From Chloropicon primus (taxonomy: Eukaryota): a DNA stretch of 64,000 nucleotides. Location: assembly GCA_023205875.1 (NCBI GenBank), contig CP060758.1:434001-498000 (forward strand). Direction: 5' to 3'. The translations under genes and the position numbers were made by a program. The notes under the pieces are model-generated. The model was not told the origin of the DNA and searched no databases. It worked only from the letters and a program-made list of their open reading frames with translations. Positions 17,615 to 61,048 of this stretch are shown here, one piece after another; position 1 is the first letter of the stretch; each line of letters starts with the position of its first letter.

Positions 17615-18586
17615 TTGGAAGTGCTGCCAGGGAACGCGTGGCTCCTGATCTTCAAGAAGCTCAGCTCCTACGACCATGTCGCCTTCGCCTCGACCTGCAA
17701 CACGTTCCTCGAAGTGGCGAGCCCAGAGAAGAAGAAGAAGAAGAAGAAGAAGAAGAAGGCTCTTTCCCTGAGGACGGACCTGACAAACAAGACGTTGTTC
17801 AACCAGATGCCTTGCTTCAGTTTGAGTTGGTTCCAGTGGGTGTTTCACTCTTTCAAGAGGAAGAAGGGAGAACCGCAACGCTGGGGAAGGGGAAAGTACT
17901 ACGACCACTTGTACGACTCTGACCTGATGCAACTCGCCGCTTTCCAGGGCAGCATCAAGGCGATCAAGTGGTTGAGGAGCCAAGGGGGTATCCCTCTGGA
18001 TATAAAAGGTAAGGATCATGAGATAGCAGCTCCTTCAGGAGCCGCTGCCGGAGGTCATATTGATGTTCTGGAATGGCTGAGGAGCGAGGGGTGCGGGTTT
18101 GATCGGTGGACTTGCCGTGGTGCAGCCATGGGAGGTCACCTTGATGTTCTGCAGTGGCTCCAAAGTCAGGACCCGCCTTGTGATTGGAACGAGTGGACTT
18201 GTGCTGGTGCAGCTCAATTTGGTCACCTTCACATTCTGCAGTGGGCTCGAAGCCAGGACCCGCCTTGCCCTTGGAACGAGTACACTTGTTCTTATGCAGC
18301 TCAATTTGGTCACCTTGACGTTCTGCAGTGGCTCCGAAGCCAGGATCCCCCTTGCCCTTGGAACAGCGAGACTTGTTATAAGGCAGCTGAAGGAGGCCAT
18401 CTCGAAGTTCTGCAGTGGGCTCGAAGCCAGGACCCGCCTTGCCCTTGGAACAAGGAGACTGGTTCCTTCCATCCATTCCCAATCAACCCCTCTTGCCATA
18501 TCGTCGGATTCCATCTCCATCTTCTCCTCATCTCTTCATTCATTCTAGAGGCCAGCAGCCTCCGGAGGATCATCTCACCACCATAA
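17615..18586 (+). pseudogene. F-box-like plus ankyrin-like repeat gene (CPW..TC..AA..GHL.VLQW family); ends probably damaged
   Basis: About six repeats. There is no in-frame ATG between the stop at 17540 and the F-box-like segment, and the last repeat breaks off into non-coding-like sequence after ~18460. Confidence 0.7.
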
Positions 18587-54577: not shown

Positions 54578-54860
54578 ATGAACTTCTCGAAGGCCTTTGG
54601 GTGCGGGAGGATCACCCCGTCGCTCGAGGACGGGACGGCCGAGGAGACGTTCATGAAAGGCCTCGAGGCCGTCCAGCGGCACGGAGACAACGCGGACTGG
54701 AAGTCGGTCGCCAAGTACTACTTGAGGGCGGCGAACGAGGTAAGAGAGAGAGTGTGGGTGGGTGGGTGGGCTGGGCTGGGGGGCTGGGCACAAGACGACG
54801 CTAGACGACGCCGCGAGCATTGTTCCTGATTTTGATTTCTGACGCGCATCGATGGTCTCA

Positions 54861-54900
<40 letters not shown>

Positions 54901-55806
54901 TGCCAGGGCCTCCCGGAGGCGTGCTGCAACCTCGGAGTCTGCTACGCGACGGGGAGGGGCGTCCCCCAGAGCGCGGAGCAGGCGGCTCACTGGTACCACA
55001 TCGCCGCGGAGAAGGGCCTTCCCCGGGCCCAGTCCAACCTCGCGGGCTGCTACGCGTCGGGCCGAGGGATCCAGCAGGACTGGGCCCTCGCGGCGATGTG
55101 GTTCCAGAAAGCCGCGGAGGCCGGCGACGGCGCCGCGGCGTGCAGCTTGGGGGCGATGCACGCGGAGGGCAAGGGCGTGGTCCACGACGGCGCCGCGGCC
55201 GCCTACTGGTTCCACAAGGCGGCGAAGCTCGGGCTCCACGCGGCCATGTTCAACCTCGCGCTGTGCTACGAGCAGGGCACCGGGTGCGACGCCCACCCCG
55301 TCAAGGCGGTGTACTGGTACCTCAGGGCGGCGAGGGGGAGCACCTCCCTGGCCAACCTGTCCTCGGAGCGGGTGGCTCAGCTCAGGCAGGAGTTCAACGT
55401 CGACGTGAGCCAGGCTTCCGAGATGGAGCTCCTGGACGACGACGGGGACTTTGCGCTCGCCGTGGGGCGGACCGTGACGAACGAGTCGAGGTCGTCCCGC
55501 AACAACAACAACAACAACAACAGTAGCAACTTCCTCGAGTCTTACTGGGCGGAGGAGCAGGACCCGATGCAGCCCTCGCCCCAGGACTGCGCCATCAGCA
55601 TGGAGAGGGACCAGGTCTGCATCGACAAGCTGGGGAGGCTGAGGACGAAAATGTCCCCCCTCTCCGAGGAGGAGGAGGAGGAGGCGGGGGGCGGGAGGTC
55701 CAAGTCGAACTTCTCCTCGTGGCTCCTCTTCTCCGGGATGGTGCTCGGGTTCAGGAAGGACGTCAGGAGGCAGAGGGGCAGGGACGCGGCGCGCCCCAGG
55801 AGTTGA
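54578..55806 (+). CDS. Sel1-like repeat protein; intron 54740-54906
   Basis: Repeated A..NLG.CY..G.GV....A..WY..AA..G units; phase-0 intron; start uncertain. Confidence 0.85.
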
Positions 55807-56177
55807 GAGAAGGGGTGGTTAGGTAGATCGAGCGGCAAAGGAACGAACGAACGACAACGGGACGAAAGAACTAACGAACGACGACTGTAGATGATGATTG
55901 GGGTGGTTGGTTTGTGGAATTTTTATTTATTCGTTACTATTTATTTATTGTTGTTTTGGTGGAGGAATGTTTTTTCTTTTTTTTTCGAGCGAATCACTGT
56001 GTCTTCAGCCGTTTCTCAAGAGCTGCTCACATTGGTAAAGTCGTCGTCTCCAGCGAGTCCTTTGCTCCTATCATCCTTGACCCATCTCAGGACGAACTGG
56101 GTTGTGACGGGAGGAGGCAAGCTTGATGTTCTCAAGCGGGCTCGAAGCCGGGGTTGCGCTGTGATTTGGGAGTATCT

Positions 56178-56901
56178 GAGGTCACCTTCACATTCTGCAG
56201 TGGTTGCGAAGCCAGGACCCGCCTTGTGATCTTCAACACAAGTGGACTTGTTCTGAGGCAGCTCGAGGAGGTCTCCCCTCCACGCCTTCGTCGTCGTCCA
56301 TTCTCTCTCGTTTGTTCGCCACCACCGCCGTCTTGAGGCCGTTCCTTTCGTGCTGCTCCTCGTGCTGCTCCCGCTTCTTCCACGCTCGTCCTCGTCGCCT
56401 CCCGTTGCTTTGTTTCCCTCTCGCGCGGCCGTTACGGTTTTTTCCCTTCCGAAGGGATTCGATTCGGGATTCGAGGGATTCGAGGGCGAGGAGACCTTTG
56501 TGGAGGGCTAGCGGGCGCGGTAGGGCGACCCAGGCGCCATGGGAGGGCTCGTTGGATTGGAAGCGTCTCGACCCGGTGAGAGACGGGGCAAAAAAAAAGC
56601 GTCTTGAGAGCCGGGTATACTAACCAGACTATACTACGTGGGATTGCAGTGAGTGTACTGTTACACTGCGTAGTTGGGAAGCGGAATTCTTCCCACGCCG
56701 GGACTCGAACCCGGGTCGCCCGGGTACAACGAACGCTGTAGTCGATTCGTGGACAACTGTAAAAAAAATGCGGAAATGCACTAGATGTATCACTGTTCTA
56801 TAAGAGACGTTATCCCGCAATTTCCATTTAGGAAATCTCGCCCTCACAAGGGGATACCTACAGATTTGAGTTGTGGAAATGTTGAGTATTTCAAATATGA
56901 A
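56178..56901. repeat. Left arm of a ~724-bp inverted repeat
   Basis: Reverse complement of 58900-59624. The ORF-track translations 56204-56623(+) and 59179-59598(-) are identical. I see one substitution and one 1-nt indel near 56761-56775. Confidence 0.95.
56605..56724 (-). tRNA. Circularly permuted tRNA-Glu(CUC), copy 1 (3' half 56690-56724; 5' half 56605-56643)
   Basis: Exact reverse complement of the copy at 59078-59197. Confidence 0.88.
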
Positions 56902-56903
56902 CG

Positions 56904-57044
56904 ACTTCGAGTCTTACTCTTGCTGGGCTCTCGGAGAGCTCTGTCTGGTACGGCTGGGCCTTCCTCTTCGTTGTTGGTCAGATTGTATGTTGGCCGCTTG
57001 GCTTCTACGTGCGCAAGCTGCCAATCCTGAACAAGATGTTCTAA
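56904..57044 (+). pseudogene. Orphan C-terminal fragment of a membrane protein (acyltransferase-3-like)
   Basis: ..VWYGWAFLFVVGQIVCWPLGFYVRKLPILNKMF* begins at the arm boundary with no start codon. Confidence 0.4.
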
Positions 57045-57442
57045 CAAGAAGATATCGACAAGCAACACTATGTACAGTTATAATCAAGGTGTGCGCGCTG
57101 TCGTGTATCCCCTCCCAATGCCTTTCCCTTGCCTCCATCCATCCCTATATTACCATGCTGGAGGAGAGGAGGGATCGTGATGGCCTCCACCTATGTTGTG
57201 ATTCCTTCCTCCTGCTATTTTCCGTAGAGCCTCACACTTGATGGGAGAAAGGAATCAGAGGATAATTGATTGATTGATTGGTTCACACACAAGACGCAAA
57301 CCACTCACTCACTCACTCACTCTCTGTGATTGAGCTCATGGATGATCAAGCGGACAGAAGCTGACACAGGGGCTTCAAGAGAGAGAGAGAGAGAGAGGAT
57401 CTTATCTCTCCCTTAATCCTCATCCTGATCCTCATCACCGCC

Positions 57443-57478
<36 letters not shown>

Positions 57479-57944
57479 TGATCACCATCTTCCCGCCAAA
57501 CAGATCACCATCCAGATCGCCACGAAGACGAAGCGGACGACGAAGGGATCCGCTCTGCGCAAGGGCGAGGAGGGCGATGGTGGAGGACGACCTGGACGAC
57601 CTGAACTTCGACTTGGAGTCCCCCTTCGATGCTGCCAAGTCCAAGCACGGCTGTGTCGTTTCCCGCGTCCTCGGGGGCGACGCCAAAACGACAAAGGCCA
57701 AGGCATCCAGCAGTGATGCCTGCGAAGGGATGGGAGGAGGAGCGGGACCCGATGCAGCCCCAGGACTGCGCGGCGAAAGAGAGAGACAAGGAGAGAGACG
57801 GAGGACAAGAAGGAAGGAAGCGACTTCTTTTCTTCTTTCGAACGAGCCGTCCCACGAAAGAGACGGCGGTCTGGCGAGAGGACGAACGAGAGGGCGAACG
57901 AGAGAGAGAGAGAGAAACGAAACGCACGCTCATGGAGGAGACGA

Positions 57945-58414
57945 TCGTTCCCGTGACGTCCTCAATCGTGAGGAATGCGAGCTTTCCAAAGACGCGCTTG
58001 TTCGTAACCCTGCAGCGCACCGCGACCCGGGCGCCGCTCTCCTCCTCCTCCCCAGGCCCCAGCTCGGAGTGCCTCTCCTGCAGCTCCTTGCAGTAGTCCG
58101 TCCTGCCAAAGCCAAAGGGCATGAACCCACTGCTGCTGAGAGGGCTTTGGGTGTCCCTCGCAATCTCCCGAAGAGCGGCCGCCTTCTCGATTTTCGAATT
58201 TTCCTCAGCTCCTCGAGCGAGGAAGTGCTGCTTGCGCCCCCCCGTCACCCTCTTGCTTCTTCTTCTTCTGCTTCTTGCCCTCGCTGACCACTTTCCCGCT
58301 GCCGCTGCCTTTCCCCTCCTCGGCGGCCTTGCCCTCCCCCGTCAGAGCGTCCAGCTTGGCCTTCAGCTCGAGAAGCTTGGCGATCTCGTCCTTGGCGTAG
58401 GAGCTCGGTTTCTC
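57945..58414 (-). pseudogene. Frameshifted fragment of class II lysyl-tRNA synthetase with a WHEP-like helix
   Basis: DEIAKLLELKAKL (WHEP-like). STSSLEELRKIR / IEKAAALRE lie in different frames. GRTDYCKELQERH..RVAVRCRVTNKRVFGKLAFLTIEDVTGTI matches the start of the LysRS anticodon-binding OB fold. Confidence 0.75.
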
Positions 58415-58550
58415 CCCCACGGCGAGCGCAAAGTCCCCGGCGTCGTCCAGGAGCTCCATCTCGGACGCCTGGCTCACGTCGACGTTGAACTCCTGCCTGA
58501 GCTGAGCCACCCGTTCCGAGGACAGGTTGGCCAGGGAGGTGCTCCCCCTC
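58415..58550 (-). pseudogene. Inverted ~135-bp copy of the Sel1 gene segment 55332-55467
   Basis: Nearly identical; about three substitutions by eye. Confidence 0.92.
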
Positions 58551-59077
58551 TCTATTTTCCCTCTCGCGAGCTTCCGCCACCAGCCCAGAGTCTCGTCCGC
58601 CCCAGTCCCCCCCCGGTCGTCGTCGCCGCTCGCCTGCCCAAGCCCCGTCCATTCTCCCAAGCCTCGACCTAACCGCCACGCAGGCGCTGCACCAGAGCGC
58701 CCTCGTCGGAGGAGGGCCACCGCGGAGCCCCGAGGTGCGGCTCCCTCCCCCTCGCCGCGGCGCAGGTCGACGCCACCGCACCGCCTTGGCTCCTGGGACC
58801 TCTCCTCCTCATCGTCCTCGTCCTCGTGGCTCCTCGCCTTGACCTGACCTGGAGCTGGAGCTCCAGACGACAGACGATGAGGAAAAAAAGTCGAAAAAAT
58901 TCATATTTGAAATACTCAACATTTCCACAACTCAAATCTGTAGGTATCCCCTTGTGAGGGCGAGATTTCCTAAATGGAAATTGCGGGATAACGTCTCTTA
59001 TAGAACAGTGATACATCTAGTGCATTTTCGCATCTTTTTTTACAGTTGTCCACGAATCGACTACAGCGTTCGTTGTA

Positions 59078-59197
59078 CCCGGGCGACCCGGGTTCGAGTC
59101 CCGGCGTGGGAAGAATTCCGCTTCCCAACTACGCAGTGTAACAGTACACTCACTGCAATCCCACGTAGTATAGTCTGGTTAGTATACCCGGCTCTCA
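59078..59197 (+). tRNA. Circularly permuted tRNA-Glu(CUC), copy 2 (3' half 59078-59112; spacer 59113-59158; 5' half 59159-59197)
   Basis: Joining the halves gives a 74-nt cloverleaf: acceptor TCCCACG/CGTGGGA+A, D stem GTAT/GTAT, anticodon arm CCCGG-CT-CTC-A|C-CCGGG, T arm CCGGG-TTCGAGT-CCCGG. Confidence 0.88.
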
Positions 59198-59203
59198 AGA
59201 CGC

Positions 59204-59212
59204 TTTTTTTTT
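59204..59212 (+). terminator. RNA polymerase III T9 terminator of the permuted tRNA (mirror copy A9 at 56590-56598)
   Basis: Nine T residues starting 6 nt after the 5' half. Confidence 0.75.
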
Positions 59213-59860
59213 GCCCCGTCTCTCACCGGGTCGAGACGCTTCCAATCCAACGAGCCCTCCCATGGCGCCTGGGTCGCCCTACCGCGCCCGCTAGCCCTCC
59301 ACAAAGGTCTCCTCGCCCTCGAATCCCTCGAATCCCGAATCGAATCCCTTCGGAAGGGAAAAAACCGTAACGGCCGCGCGAGAGGGAAACAAAGCAACGG
59401 GAGGCGACGAGGACGAGCGTGGAAGAAGCGGGAGCAGCACGAGGAGCAGCACGAAAGGAACGGCCTCAAGACGGCGGTGGTGGCGAACAAACGAGAGAGA
59501 ATGGACGACGACGAAGGCGTGGAGGGGAGACCTCCTCGAGCTGCCTCAGAACAAGTCCACTTGTGTTGAAGATCACAAGGCGGGTCCTGGCTTCGCAACC
59601 ACTGCAGAATGTGAAGGTGACCTCCTCGAGCTGCATAAGCACAAGTATTTCATCCAGTGCTGGTGGACCTGATGGTGAAGAAGGCACTCGCCAAGCACTA
59701 AGGCACGTCGTTGTTTCGAAAGCAGCAAGATCTCAGCTTGTTATTACAAGTCAAGCGTTCACGCTTCCCCATGATCAAAAGAATCCCCCCCTCCTTCCCT
59801 CCTCACTCCCTCCTCCCCTATCCCCCTCACTCCTCCCTCCCCCTCCCTCCCCCTACCCCC

Positions 59861-61048
59861 CTATCCTATCTGCTGCTTCTGCTTCGCCAGCCTCCTGAGC
59901 TCCTTCTTCCTCTTGATGATCTCCGAGTACAGCCGGTCCCTGTACTCCGAGATGGTGTACTTGGTGTTGTCGTCGATCGGGATCCGGACCACCTTGGCGC
60001 TCACCGGCTCGTCCGCCTCGTTGTGGAACTGGGCCACGTAGGGGTGCCTCAGCGCCTCCTCGGCCGTGATCCTCTTGTCCGGGTTGAACTCCAGGCACCT
60101 CCGCAGGAGGTCCAGGGCCTCCTGCGGGGCGCCCTTCCCACGGAACAGGTCCTCGAGGGAGCTCGACGCAGCCGCTGTCGCGGGGGCGACCCGGCCGTCC
60201 TTTCTCGGGTCCCCCTCCCTCCTCCCGGACCTCGCCAGGCTCTCCAGCATCGTGGACGCGAACGAGCTCTCGATCGCCTCGACGTCCTCCGCCGAGGGCA
60301 CGCCGATCAGGCCCAGCACCCTGTGCAGCTGGTCCATCGTCGAGGTCCCGGGGAACAGGGGCCTCCCCCCGAGGAGCTCCGCCAGGATGCACCCGGCCGA
60401 CCATATGTCCACCCCGTGCGTGTACCGGGTCGAGCCCAGGAGGATCTCCGGGGCCCGGTACCACCGGGTCGCCACGTAGTCCGTCAGGATGCACGACGAG
60501 CCCTGCAGGAGGTCCCCCCTCCCCTTCCCCTTCTCCCCGCTCGAGACCTGCTCCTCGAGCTGGGCCACGGACCTCGCCAGCCCAAAGTCCGCGAGCTTCA
60601 CGTAGCAGTCGCTCGACAGCAGCAGGTTGCTGGGCTTGATGTCCCGGTGCAGCAGCTGGGCCGTGTGCAGGTACTTGAGCGCCTTCAGGAGCTGGTACAT
60701 GATGTACCGCTTGTGCACGTCCAGCAGGATGTTCGCCCTGATGGCGGCGTGGAGGTCCGTCTCCATGTGCTCGAACACGAGGTAGATGTCCCTGTCGTTG
60801 TCCGCCCTCAGCACGTTCAGGAGTCGTATGATGTTCCCATGGCTGCTTATCTCCTGCAGGAACATGATCTCTCGAAACGTTCTCTGCGCGTCCGTCGCGT
60901 TCTGGAACGCGTCGAAGATCTTCTTCAGCGCAACCACTCGACCCGTCTTCCTCTCCACGGACTTCCACACGATCCCATACGCACCCTTGCCCAGCTTCTG
61001 CTGCACCTCGTACTTCTTCAACACGTGCGAGTCGATCTCCTCCGTCAT
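59861..61048 (-). CDS. MAPK15: MAP kinase 15 (ERK7/8-type)
   Basis: LGKGAYGIVWK, KKIFDAFQNATDAQRTFREI, LTDYVATRWYRAPEILLGS. Confidence 0.92.
   Translation of the reverse strand: MTEEIDSHVLKKYEVQQKLGKGAYGIVWKSVERKTGRVVALKKIFDAFQNATDAQRTFREIMFLQEISSHGNIIRLLNVLRADNDRDIYLVFEHMETDLHAAIRANILLDVHKRYIMYQLLKALKYLHTAQLLHRDIKPSNLLLSSDCYVKLADFGLARSVAQLEEQVSSGEKGKGRGDLLQGSSCILTDYVATRWYRAPEILLGSTRYTHGVDIWSAGCILAELLGGRPLFPGTSTMDQLHRVLGLIGVPSAEDVEAIESSFASTMLESLARSGRREGDPRKDGRVAPATAAASSSLEDLFRGKGAPQEALDLLRRCLEFNPDKRITAEEALRHPYVAQFHNEADEPVSAKVVRIPIDDNTKYTISEYRDRLYSEIIKRKKELRRLAKQKQQIG

Follow-up and report, generated by a model that had tools for sequence, protein, structure and literature searches.

Within a stretch of 64,000 nucleotides of Chloropicon primus (contig CP060758.1, positions 434,001 to 498,000; the window), a preliminary description made from the letters alone suggested a circularly permuted tRNA-Glu(CUC) gene, whose 3' half would lie upstream of its 5' half, and proposed that this gene is functional. 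Such an arrangement raises the question of whether the two short pieces really belong to one gene and whether a working tRNA may be produced from it. Our analysis confirms that the locus is a type II permuted tRNA-Glu(CUC) gene, which is very likely functional.

Layout of the permuted gene and of its second copy

The positions first given for the two halves, the spacer between them and the T9 run proved exact (Table 1). When the halves are swapped, 21/21 stem pairs are formed (acceptor 7/7, D 4/4 with two G-U, anticodon 5/5 and T 5/5), so that all four stems pair as had been described, and the result is a canonical eukaryotic cloverleaf with U8, G18G19, U33 and a TTC loop, and no CCA. The break lies between positions 37 and 38, one base after the anticodon, which confirms the canonical site. 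ARAGORN, run on the swapped halves, calls a tRNA-Glu(ctc) of 74 nt; a scoring of the rejoined sequence, with tRNAscan-SE or Infernal, had been proposed as a check.

In genome order, ARAGORN finds 0 tRNA genes in the window, and Rfam reports no tRNA at the gathering score in the window, nor at E up to 10 in the region 55500-60000; the gene is indeed missed by these scanners, as anticipated. Rfam matches at 57364-57484 were rejected: they are microRNA models lying on a pair of AG/CT microsatellites, and they fall far short of the cut-offs of these models. A conventional or intron-containing tRNA gene is ruled out since the 3' half precedes the 5' half and since ARAGORN and Rfam give 0 genes in genome order. 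A trans-spliced split tRNA of the Nanoarchaeum type does not fit either, since the halves are only 46 nt apart and no T run separates them: neither a promoter nor a T run was found within the spacer, and the T9 run comes after the 5' half. If the T7 run upstream of the gene stops RNA polymerase III, the leader would be limited to at most 36 nt; the only TATA-like candidate element lies beyond this run, 80 nt before the 3' half.

We then compared the window with shuffled sequences. A detector of type II permuted tRNA genes gave 2 matches out of 16 candidates in the window, against 0 out of 122 candidates in 10 local shuffles, and a gapped pattern gave 2 matches in the window against 0 in 100 shuffles. 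A likeness of 59214-59234 (20 nt, after the terminator) to a spliced anticodon arm was dropped, as 5 of 1349 other tiles score equally high.

The two detector matches correspond to two copies of the gene. Indeed, an identical second copy, missed in the preliminary description, is present on the minus strand at 56605-56724. In the assembly, both copies are carried by the arms of an inverted duplication, which are 99.7% identical; their two differences are both upstream of the gene, at a distance of over 40 nt from the 3' half, and the duplicated block includes 178 nt of upstream DNA together with the terminator. With such an identity the duplication is recent, and the identity of the two copies therefore shows youth, not selection. 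In the C. roscoffensis ortholog described below, the gene is oriented like the minus-strand copy, which makes the copy at 59078-59197 the likely younger one, produced by the inverted duplication.

The DNA between the two arms (56902-58899) is a mosaic of gene fragments. It contains an inverted copy of 136 nt of the neighbouring Sel1 gene (58415-58550, 97.8% identity), a short direct copy (57731-57771) and, on the minus strand, a frame resembling the start of lysyl-tRNA synthetase (57505-58248, E 1e-5). The downstream end of the duplicated block (59531-59646) resembles a tandem repeat at 18131-18441, with 78-82% identity, as well as many short contigs of the RNA run X6, and is likely a dispersed repeat.

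Table 1. Coordinates of the permuted tRNA-Glu genes and of their surroundings (window positions unless a locus is named)
Feature	Coordinates	Strand	Remarks
3' half, tRNA positions 38-73	59078..59112	+	35 nt; 4-nt variable loop; discriminator A; no CCA
Spacer between acceptor-stem ends	59113..59158	+	46 nt
5' half, tRNA positions 1-37	59159..59197	+	39 nt; 10-nt D loop; anticodon CUC at 59194-59196
Leader strand of the junction	59065..59077	+	G at -3 (59075) opposite C32; 59065-59071 paired to trailer
Trailer, pairing with leader	59198..59203	+	6 nt
T9 run, likely RNA polymerase III terminator	59204..59212	+	putative role
T7 run upstream of the gene	59035..59041	+	36 nt before 3' half; putative role
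Weak TATA-like candidate element	58998..59003	+	80 nt before 3' half; upstream of T7 run
Second copy, 3' half	56690..56724	-	identical
Second copy, 5' half	56605..56643	-	identical; orientation to MAPK and Sel1 genes as in C. roscoffensis
Left arm of 725-bp inverted duplication	56178..56901	-	contains second copy
Right arm of inverted duplication	58900..59624	+	contains the copy at 59078-59197; 2 differences, at 59028 and 59034
Flanking MAP kinase (MAPK) gene	59861..61048	-	synteny marker; 79.6% to C. roscoffensis protein
Flanking Sel1-repeat reading frame	54820..55806	+	synteny marker
Permuted tRNA-Glu(UUC), C. roscoffensis	L036:925-1013 and L044:1477-1565	-	between EBP2 gene and kinase gene; spacer 15 nt
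One permuted Glu(CUC) sequence, 14 loci	L016:1478-1578 (-); L006-L008, L012, L017, L033, L039, L054, L055, L057, L061-L063
Single permuted Glu types	L020:847-928 (+); L034:1478-1568 (-), L041 (-), L058:623-708 (+)		L020 UUC; L034, L041 and L058 CUC

Conservation in C. roscoffensis and other permuted tRNA-Glu genes

The GC content of the window (54-63% per 2 kb) can be set beside the published values of 57.5% for C. primus and 60.4% for C. roscoffensis (PMC12301720 Table 1), and an Obg-like ATPase encoded in it shares 93% identity with the C. roscoffensis protein, the best named match in another green alga being at 64%. These values point to a Chloropicon, likely C. primus, as the host. Relatives of the permuted gene were looked for in metagenomes with a pattern in which a tRNA 5' end comes after a T arm of the Glu or Asp type. 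This pattern gave 71 matches in 64 loci, a selection of permuted or tandem genes which is uninformative on the frequency of conventional Glu genes in those hosts: 47 have the T arm inside a conventional tRNA, 1 gives no join (L018), 2 give weak joins and 21 are permuted. The two weak joins, a Val (L040) and a Ser (L043), are likely spurious, with 4/5 anticodon-stem pairs and a location inside tRNA clusters. In viral contigs, all 5 loci scanned are ordinary tandem tRNAs. The 21 permuted loci are all tRNA-Glu genes broken at 37/38 and represent 7 mature sequences, 8 when that of the window is included; both halves end exactly at 37/38 in 8/8 of these sequence types.

One of these loci, L037, contains a permuted Glu(CUC) gene between MAPK and Sel1 genes whose DNA is 78-87% identical to the neighbours in the window. 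The MAPK of L037 and the C. roscoffensis protein P0132 share 99.7% identity over 355 residues. The mature tRNAs of the window and of L037 share 68/74 bases, and the 6 differences form 3 compensatory pairs (4:69, 5:68 and 29:41), each with one base in each half, while the neighbouring MAPK proteins of the two species differ by 20%. This is the strongest evidence that we obtained, and it points to selection maintaining the pairing between pieces that are able to pair only in the swapped order. The spacer is reduced from 46 nt in the window to 9 nt in the ortholog. A clear TATATA lies 49 nt before the 3' half in L037, and 86 nt before it in L044.

In addition, two loci (L036 and L044) carry a permuted tRNA-Glu(UUC). 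The EBP2 frame of L044 is 100% identical to that of C. roscoffensis and 80% identical to that of C. primus; with the Glu(CUC) gene of L037, this means that both Glu isoacceptors are permuted in C. roscoffensis. Glu(UUC) and the window tRNA are identical at 69/74 bases and differ by 2 compensatory pairs and the wobble base of the anticodon. A single permutation, followed by duplication and anticodon change, would be the simplest reading of these sequences.

The other permuted genes are more distant. One Glu(CUC) sequence occurs at 14 loci, among densely clustered, ordinary tRNA genes of a marine eukaryote, where it adjoins Lys(CUU) and mostly also Val(AAC); it has a perfect 4-bp central junction helix, a U32 paired to A, a G as discriminator and spacers of 18-39 nt. 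Four further types, found once each (L020, L034, L041 and L058), share 50 to 61 bases with the window tRNA. That of L020 is a divergent UUC type with a spacer of 7 nt, in DNA of 44% GC. ARAGORN also called, in two of the metagenome loci, a Glu(CUC) with an insert of 554 nt at position 31 (L008:695-1337, minus strand) and an Arg(UCU) with an insert of 272 nt (L016:2089-2446); both could be false joins or additional cases of disrupted tRNA genes.

Junction, RNA runs and proposed maturation

The leader and the trailer had been proposed to pair into a relaxed bulge-helix-bulge with a G opposite C32. Part of this proposal holds: G-3 of the leader faces C32, giving a relaxed bulge-helix (hBH) junction in which a 3-nt bulge precedes the anticodon stem, and 6 leader-trailer pairs can form, trailer positions +2 to +7 pairing with leader positions -7 to -13 with one bulged base. 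The central helix, by contrast, pairs at only 2/4 positions (C32-G and U35-G, with U33 and C34 unpaired) and falls short of a strict helix of 4 bp, and the leader-trailer duplex taken alone (-7.0 kcal/mol) does not stand out from shuffled leaders, of which 87 in 300 do as well. In the folded precursor, the four outer leader-trailer pairs have probabilities of 0.83-0.94. The corresponding duplex of the L037 ortholog reaches -18.3 kcal/mol and is matched by 0/300 shuffles; that of Glu(UUC) is weak (-1.9) and is matched by 283/300.

Position 32 and leader position -3 form a Watson-Crick pair in 8/8 sequence types (C:G in 5 and U:A in 3), these types being mutually related and thus not eight independent events. 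Such pairing fits the relaxed hBH motifs at 37/38 that the review PMC3978253 (section 8) describes for the permuted-gene junctions of green algae; according to the same section, the eukaryal endonuclease depends on the tRNA body and on the anticodon-intron pair. Sen54 and a tRNA-splicing endonuclease appear in the annotation table of C. primus (PMC6731263 supplement 16).

Thermodynamic predictions for the precursor were less favourable. With ViennaRNA, a non-cloverleaf fold is preferred (-50.0 kcal/mol, versus -41.5 kcal/mol when the stems are imposed), in part owing to the ability of the spacer to pair with the 3' acceptor strand, and the stem pair probabilities do not exceed 0.01. Nor does the program recover the cloverleaf when given the swapped mature sequence. 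Folding energy does not favour the cloverleaf and was not counted as support. The predicted pairing of the 5' part of the spacer with the 3' acceptor strand extends over 7 bp, would compete with the acceptor stem and is absent from the ortholog spacer. The spacer also contains a hairpin at 59130-59157, absent from the 9-nt spacer of the ortholog.

We also looked at RNA runs, all from one study and examined as assembled contigs. In the metatranscriptome X1, one contig of 151 nt, at depth 2, is identical in genome order to 59051-59201 (0 differences) and bridges the leader, both halves and the trailer; either copy could be its source. It fits an unprocessed precursor and may also originate from DNA. 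Nothing else is covered in 55200-60000 in this run. In X6, the Sel1 gene and a repeat are covered, the tRNA is not, and in X2 (listed at 0.24 of words) no piece was found with about a quarter of the run read. These gaps in coverage speak neither for nor against transcription of the gene. No 37/38 joint is listed among the assembled contigs of these runs, and no mature or circular RNA was seen there. With regard to codon usage, GAG represents 80 of the 86 Glu codons in three neighbouring genes of the window, and a tRNA reading it with CUC should consequently be in demand.

From the work on Cyanidioschyzon merolae and prasinophytes reviewed in PMC3978253 (sections 5, 6 and 8), we propose the following maturation. 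RNA polymerase III would produce one linear RNA containing the leader, the 3' half, the spacer, the 5' half and the trailer, and ending at the T9 run. The halves would adopt a cloverleaf in which the leader and the trailer close the anticodon loop in an intron-like manner, C32 being paired to the leader G-3. The tRNA splicing endonuclease would cut after A37 and before C38, and ligation would give a circle, from which RNase P and RNase Z would take out the 46-nt spacer. After CCA addition, the mature tRNA-Glu(CUC) would read GAG, which dominates among the Glu codons here. For permuted tRNAs of red and green algae, circular intermediates have been detected, according to section 6 of the same review.

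Alternative explanations, known systems and significance

The layout, the stems, the duplicate and the ortholog with compensatory pairs across the halves are observed, and the proposal that the permuted gene is functional is supported by a syntenic ortholog with only compensatory changes, by the 32:-3 pair and by the dominance of GAG. We consider, with a probability of about 0.88, that the locus is a nuclear Chloropicon tRNA-Glu(CUC) gene with its 3' half first and its break at 37/38, that it exists as two identical copies and has been conserved in the sister species, and that it likely gives a working tRNA by the type II route. What remains is shared between three other explanations. The one that we regard as the least improbable of them, though unlikely, supposes that the family is functional and that the recent inverted duplication brought along the copy at 59078-59197 as a silent passenger, the tRNA being supplied by the copy at 56605-56724 or by a conventional gene elsewhere. 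In its favour, only the minus-strand copy is oriented towards the two flanking genes as the ortholog is, and the near-identical arms lie among fragments of the Sel1 and lysyl-tRNA synthetase genes; on the other hand, the duplicated block took along the upstream DNA and the terminator, and its only two differences are outside the gene.

The halves could also be functional by a route without a circle, either because the spacer is cleaved first, leaving a nicked two-piece RNA to be spliced at 37/38, or because halves from separate transcripts pair with each other. The weak junction helix of the window and the possible misfolding of the precursor would suit such a route, which we nevertheless judge quite improbable given the circles observed among red and green algae (PMC3978253 section 6) and a spacer devoid of promoter and T run. 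Finally, the arrangement could be fortuitous, or what is left, in decay, of the middle of an old tandem duplication, no copy being functional. As permuted genes are proposed to originate from a tandem duplication with loss of the outer halves (PMC3978253 section 10), relics could look alike. This explanation is largely refuted by the presence of only compensatory changes between species whose MAPK proteins are 20% different; the shuffles gave 0 matches and the ends fall exactly at 37/38 in all the types, and we give it hardly any weight.

A working permuted gene of this kind has counterparts. The permuted genes of green algae of the Mamiellophyceae (Maruyama 2010, through PMC3978253 Table 1) likewise have the 3' half first, a 37/38 break, a relaxed bulge-helix and no CCA, and are missed by scanners; the spacer of the window falls within the 5-64 nt listed there for green algae and the nucleomorph. 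In contrast, the isotypes of that table are Leu, Ser, Cys, Arg, Asn and iMet, with Glu in 0 of its 35 rows, and the present genes also differ from the Mamiellophyceae cases by their host, which belongs to the Chloropicophyceae, by the permutation of both Glu isoacceptors (in C. roscoffensis) and by the two identical copies in an inverted duplication. As summarized in the same review, C. merolae (Soma et al. 2007, 2013) shares the type II layout, the T-run terminator and the proposed circular route; unlike here, it also has junctions at 20/21, 50/51 and 59/60, no Glu is listed, and a clear TATA-like element is found within 50 bp, whereas for Chloropicon Glu(CUC) the C. roscoffensis ortholog alone has a clear one. 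Auxenochlorella UTEX 250-A also has green-algal nuclear permuted genes missed by tRNAscan-SE (PMC12633428, PMC12636532 Figure S1), but it is a trebouxiophyte and the Figure S1 legend shows Pro(UGG); a Glu gene there is possible (PMC12636532). The permuted tRNA-Ser genes of chlorarachniophyte nucleomorphs (PMC4494063) and the permuted iMet and Tyr genes of Thermofilum pendens have the same reversed halves and a splice-type junction, with other isotypes and, in T. pendens, a break at 59/60.

In the open literature, we found neither a permuted tRNA of the Chloropicophyceae nor a permuted Glu isotype; PlantRNA, GenBank feature tables, subscription papers and bioRxiv supplements could record one. 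Table 1 of PMC3978253 has no Chloropicophyceae row. The C. primus genome paper (PMC6731263), in which 46 tRNAs were identified by tRNAscan-SE only, does not mention permuted tRNAs in its accessible text and supplements, nor does PMC12301720 in its accessible text and supplement, and Chloropicon is not mentioned in the accessible parts of a 2026 review (PMC13578239), its 2 supplements included. The accessible parts of PMC4494063, PMC13213038, 10.1101/2021.12.21.473619 and 10.64898/2026.07.10.737489 were also within the scope of this survey. Thus, the layout and the junction type are rare but already described in several green algae, while in this literature the class, the Glu isotype and the two permuted isoacceptors were not found reported.

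With these results, permuted tRNA genes are extended to glutamate and to the Chloropicophyceae, a class whose place is between the core chlorophytes and the Mamiellophyceae. They also suggest that the tRNA for a very common codon is missing from the published Chloropicon tRNA sets (39-46 genes, tRNAscan-SE). The species pair provides a comparative proof of selection on the pairing between separated halves, and the two permuted Glu isoacceptors, together with five other sequence types, make one versus many origins testable. Since both Chloropicon species are in culture and have complete genomes, the circular route is open to ordinary RT-PCR. More tentatively, and at somewhat less than even odds, all the Glu codons of Chloropicon may be read by permuted genes that arose from one permutation before the UUC/CUC split, and permuted tRNA-Glu may be widespread and overlooked in several unrelated marine microbial eukaryotes, with position 32 co-varying with the leader.
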